Of a stretch of DNA of 64,000 nucleotides, positions 28,967 to 47,173 are shown in pieces. The stretch covers positions 98,609-162,608 of the forward strand of contig CAVXEP010000005.1 in the NCBI GenBank assembly GCA_963760795.1. Reading direction: 5' to 3'. The DNA comes from an uncultured delta proteobacterium. GTDB taxonomy: Bacteria > Desulfobacterota > Binatia > UBA9968. Each line of letters starts with the position of its first letter. The stretch's first letter is position 1. The notes under the pieces are model-generated. The model was given only the letters and a program-made list of their open reading frames with translations, had not been told where the DNA came from and ran no database searches. The position numbers were made by a program, and so were the translations under genes.

Positions 28967-29042
28967 GGCAATCTCCCCAGTGTAATCTAACTGTTCGCTG
29001 AACTATTCGCCGCGCGAATTGATCCTTTAATAGCAACCTCAA

Positions 29043-29113
29043 AAGGGCAGGTTTCAAACCCGCCCCTTGTACAACTCCAATTCTATTTTGCGTCCTTTGC
29101 GTTCTTTGCGGCC
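29043..29113. repeat. REP-like palindrome plus half of a CGCAAAG periodic repeat
   Basis: GGGCAGGTTTCAAACCCGCCC followed by TTTTGCGTCCTTTGCGTTCTTTGCGGCC. Confidence 0.7.
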
Positions 29114-29171
29114 ATTCTCATTTCGGGTGCGGCTTCGCCGCGCTGGACCTTCGTGTCTAATCGGCCAATCT

Positions 29172-30299: not shown

Positions 30300-30559
30300 A
30301 GCTAAAGCCACAGCAAAGAAGCCGGTGCCCACTCTAAGAGCGGCGTTGCTGGCTGTCAACAATTGTCGCCAGATTCAAAACCACGGTTGCTCGACCGACA
30401 AGGCATCGAACGCTTATCGCCCATGTGGTTGGCGCGCAAAAGCGCCTCACGAGTTTGACGGGCGGTCTCGCCCTTGATTAAGATCGCCAGCGCAGGCTGA
30501 GGACATTTCTATCCCTGACCAATCATAATTGGACAGCCATCGTGTGAAGGAGTCAAAGC

Positions 30560-31510
30560 ATGAAACGACAAATGCCATCGATCGTCCTATTGCTGGCAAT
30601 GAGCTTTTTGCTGCCGCGCGCGAGCCACAGCGCCGAGGCAATGCAAAAAATCCGTGTCGGCCTGCCGTCCCTCGCCCTCACCTACATGCCTTTCTACGTC
30701 GCCCAAGAAAAAGGGTTGCTCAAAAAACTCGGCCTTGAAGCGGAGTACATTCAGATGAACACGGGCATCCAGCCCCAGGCGATTATGGGCGGCAATATCA
30801 ATTTTTTCCCCTCGCTGGCAACCGGGATTTCCGCGGCAGTCGCCGGACTGCCGCTCGTGGTAGTGCTTAACTTCTACAATTTTACGCCGTGGATGCTGGT
30901 CACCAGCAAAGAAATTAACAAGCCGCAGGATCTGATCGGCAAAAAGGTTGCGATCTCGGGTATCCGAACGACGGGACACTACTTGATGGTGGCTTGGTTC
31001 AAGAAATTTGAGATCAACGAGAAGGATGTCGGTTTTATTATGACCGGCGGGACAGCGTCGAGCTTCGCGTCGCTGGCGAGCGAGCAGGTCGCCGGCGCCG
31101 TGCTAACGCCGCCCTTCGACGACAAAGCGGTATCCAAAGGTTTTAAAAAGTATATGTTGATCGGCGACCTGATGGACATACCGACTTCCGGTCTGGTTGC
31201 GTCGAAAGCCGAGGTCTCGAACAATCGCGACAGAGTTCAAAAGACCATCACAGCACTACTCGATGCGATCGCTTGGATACGTTCCAACCGGCCGGAGTCT
31301 GCGCGCATGATCGCGGACAAATTCAAGATCACACCGGCTGAAGCCAACGGAGCCTACGAGACCTTGATCGGCATGTTCAATAAAGACGGACGATTGCCGC
31401 CGAAAATTGCCCGTGGCTATTTGGACATACTACGGCAGGAACGACCTATACCCGCCGATCTCGACCCGCAAAAGTTTATCGATTTTTCGCTGTTGCCTGG
31501 AGCAAAGTAG
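30560..31510 (+). CDS. ABC substrate-binding protein (NitT/TauT/SsuA class)
   Basis: Signal peptide; YVAQEKG and DLIGKKVAISG. Confidence 0.85.
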   Translation: MKRQMPSIVLLLAMSFLLPRASHSAEAMQKIRVGLPSLALTYMPFYVAQEKGLLKKLGLEAEYIQMNTGIQPQAIMGGNINFFPSLATGISAAVAGLPLVVVLNFYNFTPWMLVTSKEINKPQDLIGKKVAISGIRTTGHYLMVAWFKKFEINEKDVGFIMTGGTASSFASLASEQVAGAVLTPPFDDKAVSKGFKKYMLIGDLMDIPTSGLVASKAEVSNNRDRVQKTITALLDAIAWIRSNRPESARMIADKFKITPAEANGAYETLIGMFNKDGRLPPKIARGYLDILRQERPIPADLDPQKFIDFSLLPGAK

Positions 31511-31600
31511 AGCCCCGAAGTCCGTCTACGCGAGAGAAAGCAGCATCCTCGTGATGTTCGCACTGTTCATTACCGCTCATGGAAATCAAGGAGGTGCGCG

Positions 31601-32503
31601 ATGGCTGAGAACCTGTCCGACATATTCGAATCCACCGAGCCGACCCAGCTTGCCACTGGCTGGGGCCGCGCTGAAGGGCCTCTCTGGCATGCCGAGGGCT
31701 ATGTTACCTTTGTCGATCTCGAGGGGAACCGGCTGCTGCGTTGGGACCCGAACGGTGCCATAACCATAGTGCGGGAGAATACCGGCGAGGGGAACGGCTG
31801 CACTCTCGACCGCCAGGGCCGTCTCATCATGTGCGAAGGCGCCGATCACCGGCGCATTACCCGGATGACGGCAGATGGCACGGTCACGGCCATTGCCGAG
31901 CGCTGGCAAGGCAAACGGTTCAATAAACCGAACGATGTGGTGTGCCGCTCCGACGGCAGCATTTTTTTCACCGACCCCGGGCTGCGCCTTCCAGCAGAGC
32001 TGCGGGAGATCGGATTTTCCGGCGTATTTCGCATCGACCCGACGGGCCACCTGCACCTGGCCACCGACGAGTGCGAGTACCCCAATGGGCTGGCGTTCTC
32101 TCCCGATGAGTCGGTGCTGTACGTAGCAATCAGCCGGCTCGACGAGCGCTGCTTCCAGGAGGCGGAGCGTGGCGAGGTTTGTCCGCATCGGCGCATCCGC
32201 GCGTTCGACGTGGCCCCGGACGGGACCCTGAGCAACAATCGCGTGTTCTGTAATATGTCCTCGGCAGCTCCCGGCGTTCCCGACGGTATGAAGGTCGACA
32301 CCAAGGGTCGAGTGTTTTGCGTCGGCTCCGGCGGCATCTGGGTTATCGCTCCATCCGGTGAGGTCATCGGTATCCTCCGGATGCCGGAGATAGTTCGCAA
32401 CCTCGCTTTCGGCGGACCGGACTTTCGCACCCTGTATCTGACCACTCGTGGTTCCCTCGCCAAACTCGAAGTCAAAACACCGGGGATTGGGGCATTCAGA
32501 TAG
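31601..32503 (+). CDS. SMP-30/gluconolactonase/LRE family protein
   Basis: AEGPLW, NKPNDVV, PNGLAFSPD and PDGMKVD. Confidence 0.93.
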   Translation: MAENLSDIFESTEPTQLATGWGRAEGPLWHAEGYVTFVDLEGNRLLRWDPNGAITIVRENTGEGNGCTLDRQGRLIMCEGADHRRITRMTADGTVTAIAERWQGKRFNKPNDVVCRSDGSIFFTDPGLRLPAELREIGFSGVFRIDPTGHLHLATDECEYPNGLAFSPDESVLYVAISRLDERCFQEAERGEVCPHRRIRAFDVAPDGTLSNNRVFCNMSSAAPGVPDGMKVDTKGRVFCVGSGGIWVIAPSGEVIGILRMPEIVRNLAFGGPDFRTLYLTTRGSLAKLEVKTPGIGAFR

Positions 32504-32899
32504 TCGGTCACTGGGTCGCAACTTACGGGTCGTCTCGTGCGCCTGTGTATAGCGCCAATCTTTTTAGCCAATCCGGCTTGGCTCCTAATCTCAAAGAGTT
32601 ATCGACACTGATGCGAAATAGTCGCGGACACATGTTTATGAATTCGGTTTCCAGCGACGTTGAAATGGGAAACTGTGAACTCTACAATGAGCCCATCAGC
32701 TATGGGCGACGCATAAACGACTGGTTAACGAAAACGACCGCAGCGTAGCATCATTGAACGGCCTGAATAAGTAAGCGACAGCGGCAGAGACACACCTTTG
32801 AGTGCAACAAATCATGACAATATTTATCAAAGCCTCGATTGAATATCGCGTCAACGTTTCCCTCTGCAAAAATCAAATCCATTTCTAAATAATTGAAAG

Positions 32900-34894
32900 A
32901 TGACAAAAACTATTGATGTTGGAAACTCGGCACATTTAACGCGTCCCAAATACCGTGCAGACATTGATGGGCTACGTGCAGTAGCGGTTCTCTCTGTTAT
33001 TGGGTTTCACGCCTTTCCCTACAAGATAACTGGCGGTTTCGTTGGTGTAGATATTTTCTTCGTCATTTCTGGCTTTTTAATCTCATCAATTATTTTTGAT
33101 AATCTAAACCGGGGCTGCTTCAGTTTTGCCGAATTTTACAGTCGCCGTATCAAACGCATATTCCCGGCGCTCTTGGTGGTGTTGATTGGCTGCTACGGAT
33201 TTGGCTGGTTTGCACTATTCGCCGACGAATACGAGCAGCTCGGTAAGCACATTGCCGGGGGAGCTGCCTTTGTCTCTAACTTTGTATTCTTGAGGGAGAG
33301 TGGCTATTTTGACAATTCGGCCGAGACAAAGCCCTTGCTGCACCTTTGGTCCCTTGGAATTGAGGAACAATTTTATATTGTCTGGCCGCTGCTATTGTGG
33401 TTTAGCTGGAAGCAACGATTCAATCTTCTAACAGTAACGATTGTTATTGCTCTCATTTCATTTGCACTGAACATTATCGGTGTGCGCAGCAACGCGGTAG
33501 CTGCGTTCTACTCTCCGGTGATTCGCTTTTGGGAATTGCTGATAGGCTCACTTTTAGCGTATATCAAGCTGCAGAGAAAGAGTTTTTTCGCTGCGCCCAC
33601 GCATAGACTAAATAATGTTCAGTCTGTTTTGGGTGCTTTTTTGATTGCCATTGGAATTGTTTTACTTACTAAAGAGCATTCAATGCCTGGCTGGTGGGCT
33701 CTGCTGCCGACAGTTGGGGCTGCATTGATTATTTCCGCTGAAAATCAAGCCTGGTTAAACAGTAGGATTTTGTCAAACCGTGTGTTGGTATGGTTTGGCC
33801 TAATCAGCTATCCCCTGTATCTCTGGCACTGGATATTGTTGTCATTCGCGCGCATCTTTGAGGGCACAACACCGAGCCGGCAAGTACGTACTACAGCCGT
33901 CCTTATCTCGATCGTACTCGCGTGGCTGACTTACAAATTGATCGAGAAACCTATTCGCTTCGGCAAAAATAGCAAAATGATAACTAGCACGCTAATTTTG
34001 TTGATGTTTGTTGTTGGATATGTGGGATATGCCACTTATAAGAATAATGGGCTGGAATTCCGTCGGAGCATCCACAACTCATCACTGAACCAAATGGTCA
34101 GAAATGAATTTGTCGGCCCATTATGGAAATATTCCAAAAACGACATCTGCTTAAATCGCTATCCGTTTAAAGAAGCTGCCGAATATCATTGGTGGTTTTG
34201 TATGGCCAAGAAAGATGAGCCGCCAACTCTTTTGTTACTTGGGAACAGCTATGTAAATCAACTTTATCCTGGTTTTGAGAAAAATAGCGGACTTACACAT
34301 CACAACCTCTTATCCATTGGAGCCTGCGACCCAGCTAAAGTTGACGAATCTGAACTTACTAATGAAATCACTATTTCTCCTTGCTCTGGGTATCGTCCTT
34401 TACATCAGGAAAAGTTCATTGATAAGCTAATCGAGAATTCAAATTCAGTAAGATATGCGATTCTGGACGGCTTGAACCGAAATCCTGACTCGAAATATAT
34501 CTTACGGCTCAAAGAACGAATTGATTTTCTGGAAAGACATAATATTAAAGTAATAATTTTTACACCACACCTCGTGGGCGAGTACGATATCAGAGCTTGC
34601 TTTGCAAGACCGTTTGCGTCTGTTAAAAGAAATTGCGAATTGAATCTTGAGTCTCGAAAAAAAATCACTGAAGACTTTAAGCCGCTCGTTGAGCATCTAA
34701 AAACAACAAACCCAAAAGTTGCCTTTTTTGATCAAAATGACTTGTTTTGCAATCACTACAAATGCTCAATGCTACAGAATGGAATGCCGCTTTTCAGAGA
34801 TGAATATTACCACATTTCAGAATACGGCAGCATAGCGCTATCAAAAATCTTTACAAAATGGGCGAGTACAAACAGTCCAGAAATACTCAGATAA
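32900..34894 (+). CDS. OafA-like acyltransferase-3 / SGNH fusion (surface polysaccharide O-acetyltransferase)
   Basis: YRADIDGLRAVAV, GVDIFFVISGF, HLWSLGIEEQFY and ISYPLYLWHW; SGNH-like GNSY ... DEYYH; AT-rich. Confidence 0.92.
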   Translation: MTKTIDVGNSAHLTRPKYRADIDGLRAVAVLSVIGFHAFPYKITGGFVGVDIFFVISGFLISSIIFDNLNRGCFSFAEFYSRRIKRIFPALLVVLIGCYGFGWFALFADEYEQLGKHIAGGAAFVSNFVFLRESGYFDNSAETKPLLHLWSLGIEEQFYIVWPLLLWFSWKQRFNLLTVTIVIALISFALNIIGVRSNAVAAFYSPVIRFWELLIGSLLAYIKLQRKSFFAAPTHRLNNVQSVLGAFLIAIGIVLLTKEHSMPGWWALLPTVGAALIISAENQAWLNSRILSNRVLVWFGLISYPLYLWHWILLSFARIFEGTTPSRQVRTTAVLISIVLAWLTYKLIEKPIRFGKNSKMITSTLILLMFVVGYVGYATYKNNGLEFRRSIHNSSLNQMVRNEFVGPLWKYSKNDICLNRYPFKEAAEYHWWFCMAKKDEPPTLLLLGNSYVNQLYPGFEKNSGLTHHNLLSIGACDPAKVDESELTNEITISPCSGYRPLHQEKFIDKLIENSNSVRYAILDGLNRNPDSKYILRLKERIDFLERHNIKVIIFTPHLVGEYDIRACFARPFASVKRNCELNLESRKKITEDFKPLVEHLKTTNPKVAFFDQNDLFCNHYKCSMLQNGMPLFRDEYYHISEYGSIALSKIFTKWASTNSPEILR

Positions 34895-35151
34895 TTTACT
34901 AAAGCACAATCTTGTCTCGTTAATTCGGCTCTAATAACAACGTTCTGGGCGGTCATTCACATCGTGGTGGAAAGCTTCTCAAGATTTCGTCATCTGGAAA
35001 TATTCAAGATTTGGATTTCGGGAGGTCTTGAAAGGTTAGCGAGACAGGTCTTGGGGGGGGCAGTCACGGTAATCTTGCAATTTGGATTTGAGTTACGTTG
35101 AGAACTGCATTGCTTTTATATTTATCGGTTAACGATCTTCATGCCTGTCGG

Positions 35152-35235
35152 CTAATGCCCACGAAGAAACTCCCGCACATGACGGTTGAAAGCCTCGGGC
35201 TGTTCCCAGTTGATCGAGTGAGCGGCCTCGGGCAG
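35152..35235 (-). pseudogene. 84-bp duplicate of the 3' end of the alpha/beta hydrolase gene at 41229-42125
   Basis: Encodes LPEAAHSINWEQPEAFNRHVREFLRGH* vs LPEAAHSINWEQPEAFNRNVLEFIRGH*; 11 mismatches in 84 nt by manual alignment. Confidence 0.88.
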
Positions 35236-35364
35236 GCTACATGGCGACGAATCTCGGTTATCTAAAATGCTGGATAGAGATTCATCCCAACTCGCGTCAG
35301 CAGGGCGCGCCAGTACAGAGTAGCCGTCGCCGCAGATTCTCTACTTCTCAAGCAGGTGAGCAAA

Positions 35365-38300
35365 CTACTTGTCGGCCTTGATCACGACGACATCGTTCGG
35401 ATTGCCATAGTGCTGGTACGCGCCCCAGGTATTGCCGAAGTCATTGATCTCCCTGCGGCCCAGATCGAGAGCGTCGCAGATCGGCTTACCGGTCAGCAGT
35501 TCCTTGTAGAACGTCCGTGCGAGCTTTGTCGCCTGTTCGTCGTTGACCGGCCAGCCGCTGCCGATGTAGTTGCTCACGCCGCGTTCGAAGAACGCCTGGG
35601 CGATGCTTGCAAGTCCCTTTGACCGCTCATCGTTCGACAGCGCCTGTCCCTGGGTCGTGACCGCCGAGAAGCAGGCGTTGGCGAACACCAGCCGCGGCAC
35701 CTTGCGCGCGCGAAAGATCTCCCTCGCGGACAGCACGCAGTCCTTGCCGAAGATCCAGCCGCTACCGGCTGGGTTGTCCTTGTCATAGTCGCCGTGGCCC
35801 GCGTAATGCACGATGTCAAACGCTCCAGAGAGCAGCAGCGCCAGGATCTCGACGGGGTCGCATTGATCGGGGCCGATATGCTCCTCGACCTCGACGAAGA
35901 TCCCGTGCTGCTTGGCCGGGAAGTTGCGGAAGACACTCGCCACCTCGCGTCCTTCGCGGCGCGCGCCCGGCAACTGATAGTCCGTCTCGCGCGCCGGATC
36001 GGCGATGATCAGCACCTTGAGGTTGCGGTTGAGCACCGGCTTCACGCCCGGCGCGCTCGACAGCAGCGTGCGGAACTGGCGTGTCACGCGCAGGCCGACG
36101 CCGAGGCTGGAGACGTGGTTCGGGTTATGCGCGCTGCGGAAGCAGGCCATCTCCCACGGGTACGAGGCGGTGCTGCGGTCAAGGATCAGCTTGAGCGGCT
36201 TGCCGCTGTCGATCATGCTGTGAAAGTCTTCCGGCACCAGGTAGGTGTAGAGCAGTTCGCCGAACTTGATCTGCTCGTCGCGCGTCGTGGATTCCATCAA
36301 CCGGTCGGCAGCGCCGCGGGCGAATACTCCGTTGATCTCGACCTCGCGCACCGGGACGACGGCCGTCTCCGCGAGAGCCGAGAATCGGAACGTGCCCTCC
36401 TTGATCTGCTCCACCGTGAGCCGCACCTGATCGAGCGTCGATTGGGAGTCACCCCTTTTTCCGGTTTCGGCTTTTCGCTTCGGCCTGGCCGCGGAGCGCG
36501 CGCCCTTCTTTACGGTGAGCGTGATCATCGGCGCGTTCGCGGCGTTGTCTTCGATAGGCGACGCCTTGCGTTCGCGTGACGGCGCGCCGTCTGCCCCTGC
36601 AGTTGCGGGCTTTTCCAGCCGCCGAAGCTGCTCTTCGAGACTCTTGAACGGCGCGGAGTATTTCTCGACGATCGTGAGCGAGCGAGACCCCTGCAGCTTG
36701 CCGCTGGACTCCTGCTCGAAGCGCTCGGCGCCGGCCGCGACGCCCTCGAGAAACGCCTTCAGCGCGCTCTCGCGGTCGAGGTTGCCTTCGCCGGAACCGA
36801 TCAGCACGCTGGCGAAGCCCTTCAGGCCCAGCGCGGACACGCCAATGGTCACGTTCGACATCAGGAGCACCAGGTCGCCGCGCGTGAACTTGCCGAACTC
36901 GCCCATGCCGGCCAGGACCGCGCCGCCGGCTTTCAACGCATTGCCGACGTTCGGCACGAAGAACGTCTCGCCGAGGTTCCCGCCGATCATACCCAGGCGC
37001 CCGGCACGTTCGATCCAGCCGCCGAGTTTATGATCAATGGCGCCGACCGCGCGCGTCGGGGGCACGCCCTTGTAGTGGCCCACGACGACCAGCGGCGCCA
37101 CGACCTCGGTAATGTCGGCCTGCAGCAGGGTAACGTTGATCGGCTTGGTCCTGGCGTCGACCGCCGACGGCACAGACTTCTTCGTCTTCTGCTTCGACGG
37201 CTGGCCGCGGCTGCCGAGCGCAGCCTTGACGATCGCGTCCTCGGCAAAGCGGGCGTCGTCGTCGGTGAATGCGGCGCGCAACGCGGCACGCTCAGCCGCC
37301 TCGTTGACGCGCGTACCACTGCCTCGGACGGCTTGGTGGGTCGCCTCGGCCTTGCGCGCGAGCTCCCCGAGATCCTCGATGAGCTGCCGGTCCGCGGGCG
37401 TGCGGTAATCGCGCATGGTCGGCGTCGCGCGCTTGACCTCACGCAGCACCTGCGTCCCGAGTTCGGCCGTATGACCTCGTTCAAGCAGCTCGTCGACCGC
37501 GGCGATCACCGATTCGTTGCGCGCAAGGTCGCCGTGCGCTTCGTCGACGTAGTAGGTCAGCACGCCGTCCAGTTGGCCCAGGTCATGCGGAACCCGCCCG
37601 TCGCCGGCGTAGGTCAGCTCGTAGTCGAAGTCGCCGGGGTTGGCGATCTTCAGCCCGGACAGCGTCGCCTGCTTGCACCCGGCGACATAGATCATGCGCG
37701 CCGGGTCGATCGTCGATGCGGCCGCGAGATCGTGATGAAACTGGTAGGACCGGTCGAGGTGACGCTGCGATACGCGCCCGGCGTTCTCGCCCCAGGTTTC
37801 GCTGCGATACAGCTTTTTCAGCGCGGGAGGCAGCTTGTCCGGGGCCGGGAGCATCATATAACTACCGACGAACGAGTTGGTGATGTCGAGGAGCTCGCCC
37901 AGGTCGTGCTTCACGTCGAGCGTCGCGAGGAGATTGATCATCTTGTCCTGCCCGGTGATCACCTGCGGGATGGCGAACGAGCCGTAGTTTGGAGTGCCAA
38001 GCATGATGAGGCGTCCGCCGCGCACCAGCCCAGGATCCTCCATGGCCTCCCAAAGATTAGGGTGCAACCGGATGAAATTGCGGCACACCAGCCCACCCAT
38101 GGAATGGGCGACGAGATGCACGGGTTTACCCTGAAAGTCGCGGCGGATCAGCTTAGCGAGTTCGTTCGAAGATTCATCGATGTCTTTGCGCCAGTCATAG
38201 GCGAACGGCATGACGTTCCAGCGGCCGCCGAGGGCGAGCACGGCGCGGGCGTAGTAGCGCTTATTTACCCCCGTAGGTATGACGCGCCAGGCCGGGTCTG

Positions 38301-38712
38301 CTTCCTTTGAGCCGTCCGCGGCAAGCCTGAGGCGGTCGATGCGGCCGTTGATCAGGCGGAAAAAGTTCACCCAGACGTCATCCGGCTTTCCCGCACCGGC
38401 GGCAACGCCCAGGTCCGAGCCGGTGATGCCATGGAGAAAGATCACGTTGCCGAGCGGCGCCGAGCGCGACCGCACGGTCTTACTGAATCCGGCGAGCTGC
38501 TGAAGCCGCTCGAATTCCTCGGCGCCGAAGTATTCCCTCAGGTCGCTCTCTGGTATGCCGCCTGCGCCGCGGGTCGCGCCGCCCAAACCGGCCGCGAGGT
38601 CCTTCCAGTCGAGCCCCGAGACTCGTCGTTCGAGCTCGACGGCCGCGGCGGCGCGAGTTGCGGGCTTCCTTGTGGCAGCGCTGGATCGTTTGGCTTTGGG
38701 TGTCTTCTTCAT
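35365..38712 (-). CDS. Multidomain protein: alpha/beta hydrolase (lipase/LCAT-like) + Macro/M17-N-like domain + CHAT protease
   Basis: Hydrolase: FLHGITGS, YDWR, AHSMGG, LGTPNYGS and GDGRVP. Middle domain: QADIT...AIDHKLGG...SVLIGSGEG. CHAT: YPWE, HYAGHG, FANAC and YQHYGNP. Start is ATG 38712 or TTG 38745. Confidence 0.88.
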   Translation of the reverse strand: MKKTPKAKRSSAATRKPATRAAAAVELERRVSGLDWKDLAAGLGGATRGAGGIPESDLREYFGAEEFERLQQLAGFSKTVRSRSAPLGNVIFLHGITGSDLGVAAGAGKPDDVWVNFFRLINGRIDRLRLAADGSKEADPAWRVIPTGVNKRYYARAVLALGGRWNVMPFAYDWRKDIDESSNELAKLIRRDFQGKPVHLVAHSMGGLVCRNFIRLHPNLWEAMEDPGLVRGGRLIMLGTPNYGSFAIPQVITGQDKMINLLATLDVKHDLGELLDITNSFVGSYMMLPAPDKLPPALKKLYRSETWGENAGRVSQRHLDRSYQFHHDLAAASTIDPARMIYVAGCKQATLSGLKIANPGDFDYELTYAGDGRVPHDLGQLDGVLTYYVDEAHGDLARNESVIAAVDELLERGHTAELGTQVLREVKRATPTMRDYRTPADRQLIEDLGELARKAEATHQAVRGSGTRVNEAAERAALRAAFTDDDARFAEDAIVKAALGSRGQPSKQKTKKSVPSAVDARTKPINVTLLQADITEVVAPLVVVGHYKGVPPTRAVGAIDHKLGGWIERAGRLGMIGGNLGETFFVPNVGNALKAGGAVLAGMGEFGKFTRGDLVLLMSNVTIGVSALGLKGFASVLIGSGEGNLDRESALKAFLEGVAAGAERFEQESSGKLQGSRSLTIVEKYSAPFKSLEEQLRRLEKPATAGADGAPSRERKASPIEDNAANAPMITLTVKKGARSAARPKRKAETGKRGDSQSTLDQVRLTVEQIKEGTFRFSALAETAVVPVREVEINGVFARGAADRLMESTTRDEQIKFGELLYTYLVPEDFHSMIDSGKPLKLILDRSTASYPWEMACFRSAHNPNHVSSLGVGLRVTRQFRTLLSSAPGVKPVLNRNLKVLIIADPARETDYQLPGARREGREVASVFRNFPAKQHGIFVEVEEHIGPDQCDPVEILALLLSGAFDIVHYAGHGDYDKDNPAGSGWIFGKDCVLSAREIFRARKVPRLVFANACFSAVTTQGQALSNDERSKGLASIAQAFFERGVSNYIGSGWPVNDEQATKLARTFYKELLTGKPICDALDLGRREINDFGNTWGAYQHYGNPNDVVVIKADK

Positions 38713-38799
38713 GACCGGCCTTGTGGGGCGCGAATTCCGAATCAAGCGAACTGGGGCGCTGCCAGCGCCCCAGTTCCACCGCCCGCCATCTCCGAGTCG

Positions 38800-39645
38800 T
38801 CAATAGACGATCGCTTGTGCGCGGTTGGTGGCGTTGCCTTCTAGCTGCGGGTTTTGCGCGAACTTACCTTGCATCAGCGTGCGCATTTTAGCGACCACAT
38901 CCTTGCGCGCTAGTTTGTTCTTGGTATCGCGCATCACCTTTATATAGTAATAGGTGAACGCACCGTTGTAGCGACCGGTGAAGTAGGCGTCGGCGCTGGT
39001 TTCGTTGGCCTTGCAGCCAGTCCAGAGCATGTGATGCGCGCCGGCGACGGCTTTCTTGCTCTTGGACGAGGGCCGACCCTTGAGCGTAAAGCCTCGCATC
39101 CTGGCGGTTTTCTTGCCGAACTCATGGTTGGGCGGGGCGATATACCGGGGCTTCGGTGCGTGCAGGCCGAACTCCGCGCCGCGCAGACCTGTGCCGCTGT
39201 GGCAGGTATCGAGATAGACCTCGAGTAGCGCATTGGCTGGCACTTGCACAAAAAGGTCATGGAGTTCATCGTCGCTGATGATGCGTGATGGATCCCATTT
39301 GCCGCTCTTCTCGGCGATGTCGTAGGGCACAAAGGCTTCGTCCTTGCCGTCGGGCTCGTCGCCGCTGGTGTCGTTCATCTGGGTGCCGTGAGAAGAAAGA
39401 CTGAACACCAGATAACCAAGCTTGCCGGCCTTCGCGTCGGCGACCATTGCCTTCAGCTTGGCCATGATGTTGGCTTTGGTCGCCTGGGCATCGGTGAGGA
39501 TGGTGATTTCGCTGGTCTTGAAACCCAGCAGATCCTTGTAAAGTGCCGCCATATCTTTGGCGTCGTTGACGCAGCCATTGAGCGTGAACTGCGAGTAGTT
39601 TGCAAACTTGTTGATGCCCACTAAAAGGGCTTTCTTGCCGGCCAT
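38800..39645 (-). CDS. Caspase-family (peptidase C14, metacaspase-like) protease
   Basis: KALLVGIN, LNGCVNDA, SSHG (catalytic His), DEPDGKDE, DTCHSG (catalytic Cys) and GAFTYY; AAAGGAG RBS. Confidence 0.93.
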   Translation of the reverse strand: MAGKKALLVGINKFANYSQFTLNGCVNDAKDMAALYKDLLGFKTSEITILTDAQATKANIMAKLKAMVADAKAGKLGYLVFSLSSHGTQMNDTSGDEPDGKDEAFVPYDIAEKSGKWDPSRIISDDELHDLFVQVPANALLEVYLDTCHSGTGLRGAEFGLHAPKPRYIAPPNHEFGKKTARMRGFTLKGRPSSKSKKAVAGAHHMLWTGCKANETSADAYFTGRYNGAFTYYYIKVMRDTKNKLARKDVVAKMRTLMQGKFAQNPQLEGNATNRAQAIVY

Positions 39646-40032
39646 AAGCTTCTCCTTTCAATGCCGCATCCAAGAGAACTTGCGATAGTGCGGCGTTTAC
39701 CGCCTTTTCATGATAGGCACTTCTTTTGACAGGCGGCACTGTGCACTCAAAATTACGCCGGCGACCCAGCGCAAGTCCGTGCTCCAAACTGCCAAGCAGC
39801 TAACTCAGAAAACAGATTGGCCCCGTACCCCCATCTATGGTTCAGACCGTATTCGATAAGGTCGCGTTATGTCAACTTTAATCCAGTGAGCTGTTAATAC
39901 TGACTCAAGTCGAAGTGCGAGCTAATGCGAGACAAGCATCAAGGGATCAAATCATTATCAATTGCGCCAGCGCGTCCCACGCTCCGATCTGCTCACGGAA
40001 AAAGATTTTATTGCTAATCTTCACTTGCGGGT

Positions 40033-41097
40033 TCAGCGCGCCGGCAGCGGCGCGGGTCCCGCGAGCGTTTTGAACATCTCGATCAATTCAGCGTCCCGTG
40101 GGGTATCGCGAATTGCTTTGGCCAATTCTTCGGGCATCAAGGGATCGGCGTCCTCACCGACGACCTTGCGGTAATCGCGATGAAAATCGGCATCTTTAAG
40201 CGCCTTGCGCATCGCTTCTTGGACCACCTCCACGCGATCTTTGGGCGTTCCCGGAGGCATGACGTAGGGCGAGCCCGTCAGTCTGAAGGTTCTCGCCATG
40301 GTGAGAAGCTTAATCTCTTTTTCAGATTTGGCGAAGCTCTCGATCTCAGGGATATGGCCGAAGCGGGGAGGCTTGATCCCCTTGGGAACCTCCAAGGCGG
40401 CATGAAAATCCATCAAACCTTTTTCTACCCAATCGGGATTGCGCTGCCAGACCGACGCCGAGGTGTTCGCTCTGGCATCGACCTCGCCGCGCAGCAAGGC
40501 AACGTCTAATTCGGGAGCCGCGTAGCCCGGGATGAACTTGCTGTCTTTTAAACCCAGATAATAGGCAAATAAACGGGCCGCGACGTAGGCGCTGTGCCCT
40601 ACCGGCCGAGCACCGACTCTGACTCCCGATGTGGCTCGGAGTTTCTCCAAATTGCTCAGGCCCGCTTCCTTTCTGGTATAGAACACCAGGTGGCTGGTGC
40701 TTTCCGGCGAGCCGAGGTAGAAAAATTTATCGATGTCGTACATCACTCCGCTTTCGCGCAGAATATTCAAAGAGATCACACTGCTGCTGAATGCGCCGAT
40801 GGTGAGCCCGTCCGGACGGGCGTTGCGAGCCATATGGTTGCCTACCTGGCGACCTCCGCCGCCGTCCATGTATTCGACGACGATCGCCGGACTGCCCGGG
40901 ATGTATTTGCGCAGATACGGAATCAGCGATTTTACTCGGCCATCGCCGATTCCTCCCGGCGCGGTTCCGGCAACGACGGTGATGGTTTTCCCCTGATAGA
41001 ATGACGCTTGGGCAAAACTGTGATCGGCTGAGAGCACTGCGGACAGTAAGAGCGTGCCGAAAGCCGTTATTTCAACACCCGCTCCATGCGTAATCAC
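40033..41097 (-). CDS. Bug/TctC family substrate-binding protein
   Basis: FYQGKTI, APGG, RPDGLTIG and LLRGEVD. Confidence 0.88.
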   Translation of the reverse strand: MITHGAGVEITAFGTLLLSAVLSADHSFAQASFYQGKTITVVAGTAPGGIGDGRVKSLIPYLRKYIPGSPAIVVEYMDGGGGRQVGNHMARNARPDGLTIGAFSSSVISLNILRESGVMYDIDKFFYLGSPESTSHLVFYTRKEAGLSNLEKLRATSGVRVGARPVGHSAYVAARLFAYYLGLKDSKFIPGYAAPELDVALLRGEVDARANTSASVWQRNPDWVEKGLMDFHAALEVPKGIKPPRFGHIPEIESFAKSEKEIKLLTMARTFRLTGSPYVMPPGTPKDRVEVVQEAMRKALKDADFHRDYRKVVGEDADPLMPEELAKAIRDTPRDAELIEMFKTLAGPAPLPAR

Positions 41098-41228
41098 AAA
41101 TGGCCCCCTATTTTTTTCTCGCTGTCATCTCGCCCGCAGCGGCCGGCACGCGATCGCTCATCACGGCTTTGAACCCGAGCAAGATGCAACCGATGCGGCC
41201 AGCATGACAAATTTCACGTGCCTGTTGG

Positions 41229-42125
41229 CTAATGCCCCCGAATAAACTCCAGCACATTACGATTAAACGCTTCCGGCTGCTCCCAGTTGATCGAGTGCGC
41301 GGCCTCGGGCAGCACGATGAACTTGGCGCCGGGGATATGGGCAAGTTGGCGGCGCATGACCCAGGGCGGCGTTTGCAGGTCCTGATCTCCGGGCATCAAC
41401 AGCGTCGGCACGCGGATCGTCGCGAGTTTCTCGAAGGTAATCTTGGTGCGTTCGAGCTGTACCGGCGCGCCCTGCTGTCGCGCGTTGTGATGAATCTCTA
41501 GCCAGCGTTTCAAACCTTCAGGATTGGTCGCCATGTAGCCCATACTCACTTCGCGAAACTCCGGCGGCCACTTGGCAAAACCAGGCAGCGCCGTCTTCTG
41601 GCGCAGCACGCGTAACTCTTCGTCGACGATGGCACCGCCGCTTGCAGCGATAACGAGGCTGCGCAACCGCTCCGGATGCCAGAGTACGTAGTCGTAGGCG
41701 GCAAAGCCGCCGCCGGCCACGCCGACGAGATGGAAGCGGTCGAGCTTCAAATATTCTGCAAGCGCGTGGAGATCGTCGGCGATGGAGCTTGGCTGAGGTC
41801 CCGTGTCCGGATTCGCCGCACTCCGGCCCCAGCCGCGTCGGTCAAAAGCGATAACCCGAAAGCCTGCCTCGACGAAGCTTGGAATGTTGTACTGCCAGCT
41901 GTCGGTGTTGCCGGTGTTCGCGTGCAGCAGCACCAGCGGCACGCCGCTCCCGCCGCTGTCGCTGTACCAGAGGCGCACGCCCGGCAGCTCCGCGTGCCCG
42001 GCGAAGCGGGGCGGCGGAGTCTGCGCCGCCGCCGCCATCGTCAAGAACAGTGATCCCTCACCTGCGGACAAACCCAAGAGCGCCGCGGCGGCGAGGCCCA
42101 TCATCAACGGACGTGTGAAATTCAT
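41229..42125 (-). CDS. Secreted alpha/beta hydrolase with an atypical nucleophile elbow (GVAGG)
   Basis: LLHANTG, FDRRGWGRS, LVGVAGGG and EAAHS; GGGAGG RBS. Confidence 0.85.
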   Translation of the reverse strand: MNFTRPLMMGLAAAALLGLSAGEGSLFLTMAAAAQTPPPRFAGHAELPGVRLWYSDSGGSGVPLVLLHANTGNTDSWQYNIPSFVEAGFRVIAFDRRGWGRSAANPDTGPQPSSIADDLHALAEYLKLDRFHLVGVAGGGFAAYDYVLWHPERLRSLVIAASGGAIVDEELRVLRQKTALPGFAKWPPEFREVSMGYMATNPEGLKRWLEIHHNARQQGAPVQLERTKITFEKLATIRVPTLLMPGDQDLQTPPWVMRRQLAHIPGAKFIVLPEAAHSINWEQPEAFNRNVLEFIRGH

Positions 42126-42248
42126 CAACGTCCTCCCTTGTATCGACTTTCGGCGCCGACCGTAGCCGATCCGGTCGCGTGATGTCAACGTGAAACCGAC
42201 TCAAGTCAAAGTGCGCGATACACTGAAGACTTTCGACCGGGGATATTT

Positions 42249-42381
42249 CTCCCGCAAAGGCGCAAAGGTGACGGGAAAGCGCCCGTCACTCCGAACCAAT
42301 GCGAGGGCTCTAAGAAAGATTTCTCACTCCGTTCGAAATGACAACGATTCCGAACTTAGCGTCTTAGCGCCTTTGCGGGAG
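42249..42381. repeat. Nested palindromic repeats
   Basis: Outer CTCCCGCAAAGGCGC...GCGCCTTTGCGGGAG; inner GTCACTCCGAAC...GATTTCTCACTCCGTTCGAAATGAC, like 56806-56871. Confidence 0.75.
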
Positions 42382-42411
42382 CTATTTCGATCCTTCAATA
42401 AAGACAGTAAT

Positions 42412-43416
42412 TCACTTCGCCGTATTGGCGTTAACCAGCGCCAACGCTTGGGCGTGATAAGTGCCGTCGTAGTAACGGCCCGGCGGCGGCGCTTTGCCGC
42501 CCCAGCTGCCCTCGACCTCGGCGCGGAACTTGAGAACGTTGGCGAAGCGCGGCACATCGATCGTTGCATCCTTAGCCAATCCGTTTGGACCGGTGTCCAT
42601 CTCATAGATTTGTCCGGCCAGATCACGCGACAACTTCGCTTGCTTGGCAACGGTATCGATCACTTTGTCTTTGTTTGCCGGATGCATGATCCAGCGCTGC
42701 GCTTCAATATGCGCCGCGAGGTAACGAATGAGTAAATCGCTATGCTCTCGCGCCCATTGGCGGCGGGTGAAAACACCGTAGCGCAGCGTCGGGCCGAAGA
42801 TGTTCGCCGTCGTGGCCAGACTCACCAAGCCGCCCTGGCGCGCCTGCACCGCGGTCTGCCCCGAGGCCATCGTCGCGGCAAATTCTTTTTGCTTCAGCAT
42901 CGCCGCGACGCGCGCCCCCGTGCCGCCGGCTTCTTTCATTATGTAGTCGGTTGGCGCAGCGAGACCGGCGCCGAAGAGAATCTTTTTCAGGGCGAGGGCA
43001 TTTTGCGTATTGGGCGCGTCAACAAGCACAGTCTTGCCGCGCAGATCGGCAAGCGCTTGGATTTCCGGCTGTGCCATCAACTCGGTCGGGGTGTAGTCCG
43101 TGGCGGCGACGAGAATGATATCGACGCCGGCGTTCTCAACCATGGCTATGCCGTTGTCGACACCATAGTCGGCCAGATCCAATTCACCCGACGCCAGCCA
43201 GCGCCGCACCTCTTCGGAGCCGCCGGCAGCCGAGCGCGGAATCTGAATTTGCAGACCGTACTTGGCGAAGATGCCGTTGGCCTGGGCAATCGATGTCGTG
43301 AAGCTGCCGCCGCCGACCTTCAGAGTTTTGAATTCTTGCGCATGGGCGGCGACGGCAAGCGCGATCGCTGCAGTGATAACGCCACTAGCAAAGTTTGCTC
43401 GTAGTTTTGGCCGCAT
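42412..43416 (-). CDS. ABC substrate-binding protein (NitT/TauT class)
   Basis: Signal peptide; AQANGIFAKYGL and DLRGKTVLVDAPNT. Confidence 0.85.
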   Translation of the reverse strand: MRPKLRANFASGVITAAIALAVAAHAQEFKTLKVGGGSFTTSIAQANGIFAKYGLQIQIPRSAAGGSEEVRRWLASGELDLADYGVDNGIAMVENAGVDIILVAATDYTPTELMAQPEIQALADLRGKTVLVDAPNTQNALALKKILFGAGLAAPTDYIMKEAGGTGARVAAMLKQKEFAATMASGQTAVQARQGGLVSLATTANIFGPTLRYGVFTRRQWAREHSDLLIRYLAAHIEAQRWIMHPANKDKVIDTVAKQAKLSRDLAGQIYEMDTGPNGLAKDATIDVPRFANVLKFRAEVEGSWGGKAPPPGRYYDGTYHAQALALVNANTAK

Positions 43417-43443
43417 GCGGCGTTCTATTGATCAATCCCAAGA

Positions 43444-43464
43444 GGGCGGGTTTCAAACCCGTCC
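43444..43464. repeat. REP-like palindrome
   Basis: GGGCGGGTTTCAAACCCGTCC, near-identical to the one at 29043. Confidence 0.7.
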
Positions 43465-43556
43465 ATGCATCCGGAATTCTTCTTCGGACTTATTTTGCGA
43501 TCTTTGCAGTTAATCACCCGGCTCCAAATCTTGTCTATACAGGTTTTTGACGTAAA

Positions 43557-43694
43557 TCACTTAACCTCGACAATGAGTCGTTCGAGAGATTGCTCCCGCT
43601 CCTTCTTGAGTTCGGCTAACGCTTCAGCCAGATCTCCGGTCAAAGTCATGCTTCCGCAGAGTTTTAACGGAGATTGTTCTACGATTTTTCGCAT
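43557..43694 (-). CDS. 45-aa small ORF, possibly an antitoxin-like remnant
   Basis: MRKIVEQSPLKLCGSMTLTGDLAEALAELKKEREQSLERLIVEVK*; ATG 6 nt after the upstream stop. Not in the ORF track. Confidence 0.35.
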   Translation of the reverse strand: MRKIVEQSPLKLCGSMTLTGDLAEALAELKKEREQSLERLIVEVK

Positions 43695-43699
43695 TGCTA

Positions 43700-45715
43700 T
43701 TAATCCTCCCTGCCTGCCGTCACCAACGGCTCGATCACCACTGACGGGTCTAACGGGTTCTTCCTCTTGGCGGCTTCGATGTAATCTTCGCCGTCTTCCG
43801 GCAGCAGGAAACCTTCCTTGACCAATTCATCGACGGCACGTTTGACGATGTCGACGTAGGCCTGATGGCTGGGATAGCGCTCCTCGATCGACAAGCGCGG
43901 ATCGCCGATTTTTTCGCGCTCGGCTTTGGTGCGCGTAAAAGCCTTCAAACAACCGTTGGTCATCATTAGCTCGCCTTCAGCGAAGCCGGCTTTGCGCAGC
44001 GCCCAGCCGATATACGTCGCGATCGGCGCTTGCATGTCCGGATAGCGCACGCCGCCCAAGTCATTGCCGTCGGCGTCCACCTGCGGCACTTGGATCGGAT
44101 ACTCTTTGCCCGGCACCGCCTCGGGCGGGAAAATACACATGATGCCGCGCTCGTCGAAGTCGGGACCGTAGTTCCATAGCGGCAAGCGGCTTGGCTTGGC
44201 GGGCAAATTGACGTCGGGAATCTTGGGAAACCGCTTGAGCGCTTCCTCGGGCGACACCAGTTGTCCGGCGTCGCGCCGCGGCACACGATTAGACGGCGGC
44301 GGGACGCCTTGGCTCGCCCAGCGGTCCATGAGCATGAAGCAGGCGCGCAGGAACGGCTGCGGTGAAAAATTACTCGGCGGCAGTTGACCGACCCATTTGG
44401 GATTGTCGGCTGCGATGGCCGCGTGGGGTGAACCCGCGAGCATGTACATGCGCACGTTGGCGGGAATCTCAGCGTCGCTGCCGTCGCGCGGATCGGTGTG
44501 GGTCATCGAGCCGTGCCGTTCCCAATACTCGCTTGAGGTATGACAGTGAACCAGCAACGGATCGCTGTCGGGACGCTTGAGCACCGCATCTATTTTGCCG
44601 GTGAATGGGTCGGGGATCGCCATAAAGTTAAACGGGTAACGCTCCGACGGGTAGGAATGTTCTTCATGCTGGCGCGGATAGCGGCCGATCTGGGCGAAGC
44701 GCATGTTGAAATACAAACGGCCGATGCCGGTATGCGTCTGTACCGCGTCGAAAACTCGGCGCCCCTCGGCATCGCGGTTCCAGCCCTCGTAAACGAACTC
44801 GCGCACCACCCGGCCGGCCAGCGATGCGCCGTAACCGTAAACTTTATTGATAGCGCCGGCGAGCGGATTGGGCACTCCGGCAGAATCTTTATTGCCATAA
44901 TGAAGAAACGAAACCACATCGCGCAGACCGAGGAACCCGAGCCCCATGACGCGCGAGCCTTCGGTGTCGTAGATCAATTCGTAAATCCAGCCGGTCTTGA
45001 ATCCACCCTTGATGTAAAGATCGACGTTCGCAGGCTTAAGCTCGATCTTACCGTCGACTTCCTTGACCTTGGCCAAGTCCCATTCACTCGGCGGCACAGC
45101 AACCCGGGGGTCGGCTTCTTTTTCTCGAAGGGTGAGCGTCGCGGTGGCGCGGTTGAGTACCGGATAACATTGAATGTTGGCGGCGCCACTCACCGGCATC
45201 GATAGGACTCCTTTTCTGTCGGAAATAAATTCTTGGCGCACTTTGCCGCGCAGCGGCTGGCCGTTCTGGCGCGCTTCTGGTACAAAAGCAACGACATTGC
45301 TGCCGGTATAGACCAAGTCGCCCTGCCAACCCGCAGTGACCACCGTGTAGCCTTGGCGATTGAGAAAGCCGTTGCCGGCGCAATTCTCTTTCGTATAGTC
45401 GCCGCCGCCGTCGTTCAATCGCGTGAACGCGCCGCGCCCGCCGCGGTTGGAAAAATCGAACAACAGTTTGCCATTGCTCTTGCTCATGTCGACCGGCTTG
45501 ACCAGATCAATCACAGCTTTGAACTCGACCAGGCCGTCAGCATTGCGCGGCGCGAATTCTAAGTCGCAAACAAACGGTAAATCCTTTTCGTTTGGGTCGA
45601 TGGCGAAGGAAACCATGCCGAGCAACCGTTCATAAGGGCCGACGTCGCCGAAGGAAGCGCCGCCCGCAAAGGGCGTTCTGCCGGTGAATTCCAGCATGAT
45701 TTTATTTTTAGACAT
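43700..45715 (-). CDS. Alpha/beta hydrolase domain-containing protein (large, Abhydrolase_10-like)
   Basis: FGDVGPYERL, NRGG, GWQGD, YGASLAGR, SSEYW, DADGNDLGG and DPRLSIEERYPSH. Confidence 0.85.
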   Translation of the reverse strand: MSKNKIMLEFTGRTPFAGGASFGDVGPYERLLGMVSFAIDPNEKDLPFVCDLEFAPRNADGLVEFKAVIDLVKPVDMSKSNGKLLFDFSNRGGRGAFTRLNDGGGDYTKENCAGNGFLNRQGYTVVTAGWQGDLVYTGSNVVAFVPEARQNGQPLRGKVRQEFISDRKGVLSMPVSGAANIQCYPVLNRATATLTLREKEADPRVAVPPSEWDLAKVKEVDGKIELKPANVDLYIKGGFKTGWIYELIYDTEGSRVMGLGFLGLRDVVSFLHYGNKDSAGVPNPLAGAINKVYGYGASLAGRVVREFVYEGWNRDAEGRRVFDAVQTHTGIGRLYFNMRFAQIGRYPRQHEEHSYPSERYPFNFMAIPDPFTGKIDAVLKRPDSDPLLVHCHTSSEYWERHGSMTHTDPRDGSDAEIPANVRMYMLAGSPHAAIAADNPKWVGQLPPSNFSPQPFLRACFMLMDRWASQGVPPPSNRVPRRDAGQLVSPEEALKRFPKIPDVNLPAKPSRLPLWNYGPDFDERGIMCIFPPEAVPGKEYPIQVPQVDADGNDLGGVRYPDMQAPIATYIGWALRKAGFAEGELMMTNGCLKAFTRTKAEREKIGDPRLSIEERYPSHQAYVDIVKRAVDELVKEGFLLPEDGEDYIEAAKRKNPLDPSVVIEPLVTAGRED

Positions 45716-45839
45716 CGATTCTCTCCTGCTTGATCATGGATCGCGAGGGGCAGCATCCTCTCACCAATCGGCCGCTCTCTAGTCGCGGACGCTAGCAAAG
45801 TAGTTTGCGACGGTCAACTTAGAGTCGTCCCGGATGAAT

Positions 45840-45869
45840 TTGACATAAACCTCACCGATTGAATAAGTT
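45840..45869 (+). promoter_or_regulatory. Putative sigma70 promoter of cupin-eutA
   Basis: TTGACA-N18-TAAGTT ahead of the GGGAGG RBS and ATG 45909. Confidence 0.5.
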
Positions 45870-45908
45870 CGAATCCGTCTCAATCCTAATCAGCCGGGAG
45901 GATACCAG

Positions 45909-47090: not shown

Positions 47091-47106
47091 GAAACAACGG
47101 TACTCG

Positions 47107-47173
47107 CCACGAAGGACACGAAGGGTTGGGAAATAGCGTTTCTTAGACTTCGTGATCTTCGTGCCCTTCGTGG
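47107..47173. repeat. 9-bp-periodic inverted repeat (CACGAAGGA-type)
   Basis: CCACGAAGGACACGAAG...CTTCGTGATCTTCGTGCCCTTCGTGG. Confidence 0.85.

Follow-up and report, generated by a model that had tools for sequence, protein, structure and literature searches.

The window analysed here is a stretch of 64,000 nucleotides (nt) from an uncultured delta proteobacterium (assembly GCA_963760795.1, contig CAVXEP010000005.1, positions 98,609 to 162,608). We focused on a locus of two adjacent, co-oriented genes on the minus strand of the window. The first gene encodes a C14 metacaspase of 281 amino acids (aa), and the second encodes a fusion of an LCAT-like hydrolase, an M17_N-type domain and a CHAT domain. 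An earlier interpretation made from the letters alone (the sequence-only reading) had taken the two genes for a two-protease cascade that gates a lipid-attacking effector. The genes, and the parts of the fusion protein in their order along the chain, are as follows.

38800–39645, minus strand: metacaspase gene, 281 aa, Peptidase_C14 (open reading frame (ORF) and Pfam)
35365–38745, minus strand: fusion gene with its stop codon at 35365–35367; its product has 1126 aa if read from the TTG at 38745 and 1115 aa if read from the ATG at 38712 (ORF)
38464–38628, minus strand: conserved N-terminal segment of the fusion protein, aa 40–94, with W47, L81 and R92 invariant
37411–38463, minus strand: LCAT/LPLA2-like alpha/beta-hydrolase domain, aa 95–445 (Pfam LCAT and profile)
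37135–37410, minus strand: linker 1, aa 446–537, 18.5% Lys+Arg, ending in PSKQKTKK (composition; no family match)
36646–37134, minus strand: M17-aminopeptidase N-terminal-type domain, aa 538–700 (PF02789 and profile)
36349–36645, minus strand: linker 2, aa 701–799, 19% Lys+Arg, KKGARSAARPKRK (composition and alignment)
35368–36348, minus strand: CHAT caspase-like protease domain, aa 800–1126 (Pfam)

Translation of the fusion gene probably starts from the ATG at 38712 (aa 12) rather than from the TTG, because this ATG and its surroundings are conserved at locus L001 of a genome of the same genus, and because a length of 1115 aa is also that of the closest database proteins. The intergenic gap measures 54 nt to the TTG and 87 nt to the ATG at 38712. 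Both ORFs and every motif quoted in the sequence-only reading were found in the translations, namely SSHG, DTCHSG and KKTARMR...SKSKK in the caspase, and AHSMGG, LGTPNYGS, GDGRVP, QADIT, AIDHKLGG, LIGSGEG, PSKQKTKK, KKGARSAARPKRK, HYAGHG and ANAC in the fusion protein. Its statement that both proteins carry intact His/Cys dyads also held, as both dyads are invariant in the alignments described below. No signal peptide was found in either protein, judged by eye only.

The caspase matched Peptidase_C14 (PF00656) with 92.6 bits against a cut-off of 21.4 (E = 3.8e-26; Pfam). Its catalytic dyad consists of His86 (SSHG; codon 39388–39390) and Cys148 (DTCHSG; codon 39202–39204), which are invariant in 28 aligned caspases. 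C25, D28, D102, E103, D109, D146 and D219 are likewise invariant, and we take these to be the residues of an Arg/Lys S1 pocket and a Ca2+ site. From these residues, the protein is predicted to be a metacaspase of the Arg/Lys and Ca2+ type. Its closest relative in the Protein Data Bank (PDB) is the yeast metacaspase Yca1 (4f6o, E = 4.3e-26), which aligned in two stretches that correspond to the p20 and p10-like parts. The dyad regions of the two proteins were aligned, and SGDEPDGKDE in the window caspase lies opposite DGDEEDGMDD in Yca1. Geobacter GSU0716 was the other best solved relative. A basic inter-domain linker at approximately aa 160–200 is followed by the p10-like C-terminal part.

We also considered membership of the EACC1-associated caspases and rejected it. 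The NCBIfam model caspase_w_EACC1 gave 32.6 bits against a cut-off of 140, and in place of the upstream gene of the EACC1-caspase two-gene system (Kaur et al. 2020, PMC7159879) the window has a 354-aa ORF without family match, behind a terminator-like site. Pfam gave no match for this ORF (40033–41097, minus strand) at E ≤ 1e-5, yet it shares 96% identity with its counterpart in the same-genus genome and is under strong purifying selection, with a ratio of nonsynonymous to synonymous divergence (dN/dS) of 0.10.

In the fusion protein, the serine-hydrolase domain named in the sequence-only reading was recovered and could be specified further by profile, motifs and an invariant triad as LCAT/LPLA2-like. 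LCAT (PF02450) matched aa 177–301 with 32.1 bits against a cut-off of 21. The triad consists of Ser215 (38101–38103), Asp382 (37600–37602) and His404 (37534–37536), and is invariant in the 49 fusion proteins aligned. A profile of 38 hydrolase domains matched LPLA2 (4x90, E = 8.5e-10) and LCAT (E of about 4e-8), with the motifs YDWR, HSMGG and GDGxV aligned. Hence, the domain is a predicted lipase or phospholipase that shares these motifs and the Ser-Asp-His triad with LCAT and LPLA2; unlike them, it is bacterial, cytoplasmic and fused to proteases. The N-terminal segment at aa 40–94 also precedes many stand-alone lipase homologues, where it is part of the architecture at lipase-only loci. At the other end of the protein, CHAT (PF12770) matched aa 829–1101 with 87.2 bits against a cut-off of 24 (E = 1.7e-24), and the dyad of His984 (35794–35796) and Cys1025 (35671–35673) is again invariant in the 49 fusion proteins. 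Linker 2, which leads to this domain, has the conserved strands ITLTVKK and VRLTVE...FRFSAL on either side.

The middle domain had been described as resembling the Macro/M17-N fold, and the two halves of this description fared differently. Its M17_N-type identity is established at the level of sequence families. Peptidase_M17_N (PF02789) matched aa 554–678 with 32.4 bits against a cut-off of 23.4, and 31 of the 43 family members matched the same model. A profile of these 43 sequences matched the N-terminal domains of leucyl aminopeptidases (LAP) 3jru (4e-10), 8pz0 (7e-8), 7y1s (1e-6) and PepA 1gyt (3.5e-6), and M17_N clusters made up 25 of the 30 feature matches of a 78%-identical homologue in the ESM Atlas. 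A canonical Macro domain was not supported. None of the 43 members matched Macro (PF01661) at E ≤ 0.01, and the macro-like PDB matches of the profile were marginal for 2dx6 (TTHA0132; E = 0.0075) and not significant for macroH2A (E = 0.28). An hhalign comparison with 12 Macro proteins of related genomes gave a probability of 17% and an E-value of 0.0014, with 154 columns in register. The Macro ligand motifs NAAN and GGGV are not kept, with VGHY and GAID in their place, and only GDIT and a GxGxG-like loop are common to both. Distant kinship with Macro domains is therefore plausible from these alignments, and binding or sensing of ADP-ribose finds no support in them. The N-terminal domain of LAP takes part in assembling the hexamer and, in the case of PepA, also in binding DNA. 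The domain is homologous to the N-terminal domain of the M17 leucyl aminopeptidases (PepA/LAP); unlike these enzymes, the fusion protein has no M17 catalytic domain, and its M17_N-type domain lies between a lipase and CHAT.

The sole Macro (PF01661) gene found in the window genome lies outside the window (G000:C13:160890-161157). It consists of two adjacent pieces with frames of 85 and 124 aa, and its relatives are single genes of approximately 190–200 aa, so that a frameshift or an assembly error may be involved.

Domain hidden Markov models (HMMs) built from the alignment, together with an iterated caspase HMM, were used to score 92 genome and metagenome loci. Loci were regarded as assessable when their 5' end was not truncated and their upstream flank extended for 900 nt or more, and a caspase was counted if it was co-oriented and within 2 kb upstream. 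Apart from the short form seen in the window, the family has long forms of 1,800–2,000 aa, which carry additional DUF7379 hydrolase domains N-terminal to the LCAT-like one and end in a TPR-S sensor domain. In total, 42 of the 49 fusion loci were assessable, and nine of these 42 had an upstream caspase. The frequency was 5/10 in assessable long forms, 4/32 in assessable short forms and 3/10 in assessable 3'-truncated loci. In the lipase-only control loci, which carry stand-alone bacterial lipase homologues of approximately 420–550 aa, it was 0/23. The expected co-occurrence of the two genes in other genomes was thus found. One further fusion locus had a convergent caspase downstream. Among 212 neighbouring ORFs, the caspase was the only large recurrent cluster (9 loci), and the next was a 248-aa protein at four loci.

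The adjacent caspases formed dedicated clades in a quick maximum-likelihood tree of 44 caspases. These clades comprised the window caspase with those of L002 and L073, L074 with L078, L086 with L012, and six long-form partners, while L100 stood alone. The adjacency label required 4 changes on this tree versus a mean of 12.1 after shuffling, and none of the 500 shuffles reached so low a number; the non-adjacent caspases came from one phylum sample and the adjacent ones from metagenomes, and the clustering may be inflated by this sampling. Moreover, the caspase and the fusion gene form one block of 4336 nt that is common to the window and a Bryobacterales metagenome-assembled genome (MAG; locus L002), with 78.4% nucleotide identity and different flanking genes. 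The window genome has exactly one CHAT gene and one C14 gene, and these are the two adjacent genes. As judged from sequence comparison, recurrent synteny, dedicated caspase clades, joint block transfer and natural caspase-M17_N-CHAT fusions together confirm that the two genes are a real functional pair, optional yet specific.

These natural fusions emerged from the wider family. The best 120 database clusters were all at least 46% identical to the fusion protein over nearly its full length, and their named sources included Bryobacterales, Burkholderiaceae, Pyrinomonadaceae, Aminicenantales and Nitrospira. An exhaustive search with the middle-domain profile at E ≤ 1e-3 yielded 4,896 cluster representatives, of which 446 reached E ≤ 1e-30. 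We assigned the architectures of the best 150 carriers with our own domain HMMs. Lipase-M17_N-CHAT accounted for 70 of these (plus 4 variants), and M17_N-CHAT without lipase for 35 (plus 5 variants; median 615 aa, 28 of the 35 starting with Met). Lipase-M17_N (19) and M17_N only (15) are probably fragments, and two carriers had a caspase N-terminal to M17_N(-CHAT).

P0359 is a single chain of 865 aa with a caspase at aa 2–288 (SGHGG, DACHSG), followed by M17_N and CHAT. Its caspase matched PDB entry 3bij (2e-28) and is 31% identical to the window caspase. Among the P0359 matches listed, 12 of 120 clusters combined PF00656 with PF02789 and/or PF12770, and the core of these caspase fusions is 44–54% identical to the core of the lipase-bearing proteins. 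The single-chain clade (P0359, P0386 and P0390–P0399; 714–937 aa) includes one member labelled as a Planctomycetes MAG. In these proteins the caspase takes the N-terminal place of the lipase. Such fusions argue for a functional link in the manner of a Rosetta stone, and because of them we assign the caspase to a variable effector slot. Furthermore, the caspase gene at locus L012 is paired with an M17_N-CHAT gene that lacks the lipase. In our best reading of these architectures, M17_N-CHAT would be a constant regulatory protease core that is combined with swappable effectors; in the window, the lipase is fused to it in cis and the caspase is supplied in trans.

Long forms were found at L099, L133, L145, L096 and L163–L165, and in the same-genus genomes G817, G821, G826, G820, G822 and others. 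Their partner caspases have N-terminal extensions of up to approximately 420 aa without family match. A protein of about 250 aa adjoins long forms at L099:9973-10542, L101:5416-6162, L133:9962-10720 and L081:868-1614, and lies directly downstream and convergent in three loci. The CHAT proteins of approximately 1,100 aa in the phylum were considered as further relatives and rejected, as they matched the CHAT part only and have a different architecture.

The family is very patchily distributed, has spread horizontally and includes copies on mobile elements. In a sample of 401 genomes of the phylum, three genomes had the full short architecture and three more had long forms. Among 31 genomes of the same genus (including the unpublished G814), the short form occurred only in the window genome (G000) and in G850, and the window-type caspase only in G000. 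The GC content at third codon positions (GC3) of the fusion gene was 0.84 versus 0.66–0.76 in neighbouring genes, with 0.74 in the caspase. Its synonymous divergence (dS) from L001 was 0.36, twice the value of 0.17 in the flanking gene. Distant long forms reside on plasmids of cultured Paracoccus, Azotobacter, Ensifer and Rhizobium, and the Azotobacter copy sits among a recombinase, a DNA methyltransferase, Fic and insertion sequence (IS) elements. In two Paracoccus plasmids (L203:1131-4415 and L205:1223-4468), a hypothetical protein of approximately 1,090 aa, which is not a caspase, is encoded co-oriented directly upstream of the long form. This gene overlaps the start of the long form in one plasmid; its product had a weak SBP_bac_3 match only and may be an alternative partner.

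The 10 flanking ORFs that were scanned (27959–32503 and 40033–48723) and the acyltransferase gene at 32900–34894 contained no CRISPR, gasdermin, cyclase or TIR families, which agrees with the sequence-only reading that CRISPR, gasdermin and cyclase genes are not nearby. The acyltransferase gene (plus strand; Acyl_transf_3 and SGNH) has a GC content of 0.42 and a GC3 of 0.44, versus a mean GC content of 0.57 in the window. The segment that contains it (32543–35365) lies immediately 3' of the fusion gene; L001 lacks it at the corresponding position, and it looks like a recent insertion. An NMT1-type solute-binding gene (30636–31448) and a pair of an alpha/beta-hydrolase gene and a second NMT1-type gene (41277–43609) likewise have no counterpart in L001. 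Compared with this same-genus genome, the region as a whole is a hotspot where genes are gained and lost.

Three short signals accompany the two genes.

39651–39658, minus strand: ribosome-binding site AAAGGAGA, 5 nt upstream of the caspase ATG (direct sequence reading)
39753–39774, minus strand: terminator-like hairpin with T-run, upstream of the caspase gene (consensus scan, pattern match only)
38753–38771, minus strand: perfect 7-bp GC hairpin GGGGCGC-TGGCA-GCGCCCC without T-run, in the 87-nt spacer (direct sequence reading)

The ribosome-binding site of the caspase gene is strong. The terminator-like hairpin probably ends the preceding gene, and the caspase and fusion gene would therefore be a transcription unit of their own. 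The GC hairpin in the spacer may be an attenuator or an RNA-stability element. Metatranscriptome contigs from rhizosphere and other libraries (95–99% alike) cover parts of both genes, and one contig from an RNA library (38706–38880) spans the junction between them. Because of this level of identity the contigs stem from relatives, and carry-over of DNA is possible; the junction-spanning contig is a weak hint that is compatible with co-transcription, short of proof of a single transcript.

Known systems offer several points of comparison. In Haliangium ochraceum, SAVED-CHAT cleaves and activates the promiscuous PCaspase in type III-B CRISPR-Cas and CBASS (10.1101/2023.06.23.546230). The window shares with this system a CHAT domain fused to a regulatory domain, a separate C14 caspase in the same cluster and possibly an initiator/executioner logic. 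Unlike that system, the window has no SAVED family match in Pfam, and the SAVED_CHAT model of PADLOC matched the CHAT part only (aa 978–1092, E = 9e-4). The flanking ORFs scanned also contained no Cas10/CD-NTase generator, sigma factor, kinase or inhibitor gene, and no Cas10/CD-NTase generator was found among the recurrent neighbours of fusion genes. The M17_N-type regulator, the lipase in cis and the optional caspase set the window apart as well.

Type IV Thoeris consists of TIR and a caspase-like protease, and type II Thoeris has a Macro-domain effector, according to a second report (10.1101/2024.10.24.620036). As described there, the likeness lies in a caspase-family protease that serves as abortive-infection effector under a fused ligand-sensing domain, and in Macro domains as known sensors of ADP-ribose signals. 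The window differs from this description in that the scanned flanks hold no TIR gene, no canonical Macro domain is present, and two proteases and a lipase take the place of one protease. BovA of Borvo, a single-gene defence system in PADLOC, is presumably a CHAT protein of unknown mechanism. The fusion protein resembles it as a CHAT protein without obvious signalling partner, with a PADLOC BovA match at E = 2e-6. Membership of Borvo was rejected; the match covers only aa 955–1090 and model positions 526–656 of 711, i.e. the CHAT part, and the rest of the architecture differs. The BovA model implies neither a lipase nor an M17_N domain, unlike the window fusion.

No description of the lipase-M17_N-CHAT or caspase-M17_N-CHAT architecture was found in the literature, including term look-ups in the text of two papers of the Aravind group (PMC7159879 and PMC8195603), whose supplementary tables may list it. 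The locus would be of a known kind, that of caspase-family protease cascades in bacterial conflict systems, and it differs from SAVED-CHAT/PCaspase in its sensor and in having no signalling enzyme gene in the scanned flanks.

Our preferred interpretation, which we advance tentatively and give somewhat less than an even chance, is that the two-gene operon is a modular, self-contained protease/lipase system, with an M17_N-CHAT core, a lipase in cis and a metacaspase in trans, that is initiated by CHAT. The M17_N-type domain would be the regulatory part, either as a platform for oligomerisation or as a sensor of a ligand. CHAT would be the initiator caspase-like protease, switched on by phage or other stress; we propose it as initiator because of the analogy with SAVED-CHAT/PCaspase. 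Once active, it would free or activate the lipase through cleavage of the disordered basic linkers, and it would also cut the inter-domain linker of the metacaspase and thereby activate it, as SAVED-CHAT does to PCaspase. Membrane-lipid hydrolysis and promiscuous proteolysis would then lead to growth arrest or cell suicide. We infer the direction of the cascade, the linker cleavage, the trigger and the suicide or defence outcome, the last of these because of the architecture, the patchy distribution and the mobility of the family. We are more doubtful of the wider proposal that M17_N-CHAT is a large, undescribed family of autonomous suicide or immunity modules. Such modules would have an aminopeptidase-derived Macro-fold domain as a novel switch of the initiator protease, operated by a ligand or by oligomerisation, and interchangeable executioners, namely LCAT-like phospholipases, DUF7379 hydrolases and metacaspases in cis or in trans. 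If this wider proposal is true, the window would contain a two-tier caspase cascade that operates without a CRISPR, CBASS or TIR signalling enzyme and destroys both membrane and protein.

Several observations weigh against a CHAT-initiated defence cascade, and many of these concern the caspase. It is absent from 33 of the 42 assessable fusion loci. Only three genomes of the phylum sample had both a fusion-like and a caspase-like gene, the two were adjacent only in the window genome, and the 25 other caspase loci were all without a fusion domain in their vicinity. Close caspase homologues (53–56% identical) occur in genomes without the fusion gene; in the class of the genome that holds L003, the count of such homologues was 0/400, which is uninformative. 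Ten genomes without an adjacent caspase had a C14 gene elsewhere in five cases and none seen in the other five, and the latter are weak evidence because the genomes are MAGs. The unlinked caspases that were checked are only 33–49% identical to the window caspase. Two long-form genomes with a completeness of 100%, G099 and G066, yielded no separate caspase. Finally, locus L001 (genome G850) is syntenic with the window at 87–96% nucleotide identity, and positions 38748–39771, with the caspase gene inside, are replaced there by approximately 22 nt. The fusion tree (L002,(L001,WINDOW)) had a support of 100/98, and because of this topology the simplest history is loss of the caspase in the L001 lineage. 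We use the topology alone, since the caspase labels on this tree set caspase-bearing loci against non-assessable ones only. The caspase-less fusion gene of L001 is intact and under purifying selection, with a pairwise dN/dS of 0.22, compared with 0.15–0.16 in other fusion-gene pairs and 0.18 in the caspase. Because the caspase is missing at 33 of 42 loci, at the L001 site and in G099 and G066, it is an optional accessory, and any cascade would not be essential to the core function. Of the two-protease cascade in the sequence-only reading, the functional pair stands and the caspase as obligate member does not.

The linkers and the genomic neighbourhood add to these points. The Lys/Arg-rich linkers had been taken as a signature of caspase cleavage, and their Lys+Arg fraction was 0.155 in proteins with a caspase (n = 7) versus 0.153 in those without (n = 33; p = 0.57). 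Because they are equally basic without a caspase, they are no specific evidence of cleavage by it. M17_N domains of aminopeptidases are not known to act as signal sensors. No relative was found in viral contigs. The neighbours in the window are solute-binding proteins, hydrolases, a gluconolactonase-like protein, a cupin and EutA, and the window is no defence island. At E ≤ 1e-10, PADLOC matched 93 families in 110 fusion-gene neighbours versus 0 in 110 control neighbours, with LmuA, Avs1a, RTasMBL, PDC-S15 and PDC-M48B represented by 2 members each. One Ser/Thr kinase and one UvrD-type helicase account for 74 of the 93 families, and 18 of the 20 largest fusion-gene neighbours had no PADLOC match. 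Defence-type neighbours are thus slightly more frequent than in the control, and the enrichment across the family is a weak indication of defence islands; the expected defence-island placement was not seen in the transport and metabolic surroundings of the window.

The cascade might also run in reverse, with the metacaspase as sensor and initiator (e.g. of Ca2+ influx after membrane damage) that cuts the fusion linkers after Lys/Arg and frees the lipase and/or CHAT. This order would suit the invariant Arg/Lys- and Ca2+-type residues, the alignment with Yca1, the 18–19% Lys+Arg in the linkers and a caspase gene that comes first in the operon behind a strong ribosome-binding site. Most fusion genes, however, lack a caspase, some genomes lack one altogether, and CHAT acts upstream in the one known precedent. 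Because the linkers are equally basic without a caspase, and because the caspase occupies the variable effector slot of the natural fusions and not the constant core, we regard the reverse order as unlikely. A different switch is implied if the middle domain is a true Macro sensor of ADP-ribose-derived signals that turns on CHAT, which is the version of the sequence-only reading. The analogy is with type II Thoeris, which senses His-ADPR via a Macro domain (10.1101/2024.10.24.620036). Some members carry the JGI label 'O-acetyl-ADP-ribose deacetylase', and the in-register alignment, the common GDIT start and the weak match to TTHA0132 (with the non-significant one to macroH2A) point the same way. 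We nevertheless consider this quite improbable, given a score of 0/43 for PF01661 versus 31/43 for M17_N, the hhalign probability of 17% and the replaced ligand motifs. Moreover, no TIR, ART, sirtuin or other NAD-using gene was seen among the scanned or recurrent neighbours.

The locus could instead be a housekeeping or stress module for regulated lipid remodelling and protein turnover (starvation, development, envelope stress), with the caspase merely co-regulated. The metabolic flanks in the window would fit this role, as would the upstream neighbours in other genomes, which include RecA (L002), an AMP-binding enzyme and thioredoxin-reductase-like genes. The presence of both genes in rhizosphere metatranscriptome libraries and the purifying selection on both also agree with it. 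A housekeeping role is harder to reconcile with a short form in only 3/401 phylum-sample and 2/31 same-genus genomes, with the anomalies in composition and dS, with block transfer between phyla, and with plasmid copies near recombinase, methyltransferase, Fic and IS genes. Swappable effectors, TPR-S sensor fusions and some defence-type neighbours versus none in the control also argue against it, and we judge this explanation to be on the unlikely side, if a serious candidate. Lastly, the adjacency would be meaningless if independent genes were joined by chance or hitch-hiking. Most family members do lack a caspase, close caspase homologues occur without the fusion gene, and the two genes differ in GC3 (0.74 versus 0.84). 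A caspase at 9/42 fusion loci versus 0/23 controls, as the only large recurrent neighbour cluster, nonetheless makes chance highly improbable. So do the same order and orientation in at least four separate caspase clades, the single-chain caspase-M17_N-CHAT proteins and the fact that members of different phyla share the two genes as a single block.

Recent work has established caspase-like proteases as executioners of bacterial immunity, in type III CRISPR (SAVED-CHAT/PCaspase) and in type IV Thoeris. To our knowledge, every characterised case of such an executioner in bacteria depends on a dedicated generator of a nucleotide signal. In the fusion family no generator partner of this kind was seen; the family has two caspase-fold proteases and a predicted phospholipase, and lipase and caspase are swapped in the same slot. 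It is open to experimental study because cultured carriers of distant long forms exist, among them the soil bacteria Paracoccus sp. TOH and Azotobacter chroococcum HR1. If its role were physiological turnover of lipid and protein instead, it would caution against reading every CHAT or caspase gene as immunity. If the CHAT-initiated system that we prefer is real, the M17_N type would add a new sensor or switch domain to the regulators of CHAT, and the family would provide a simple one- or two-gene system for the coupling of initiator and executioner caspases in bacteria. It would also be another link between the cell-death machinery of prokaryotes and eukaryotes.

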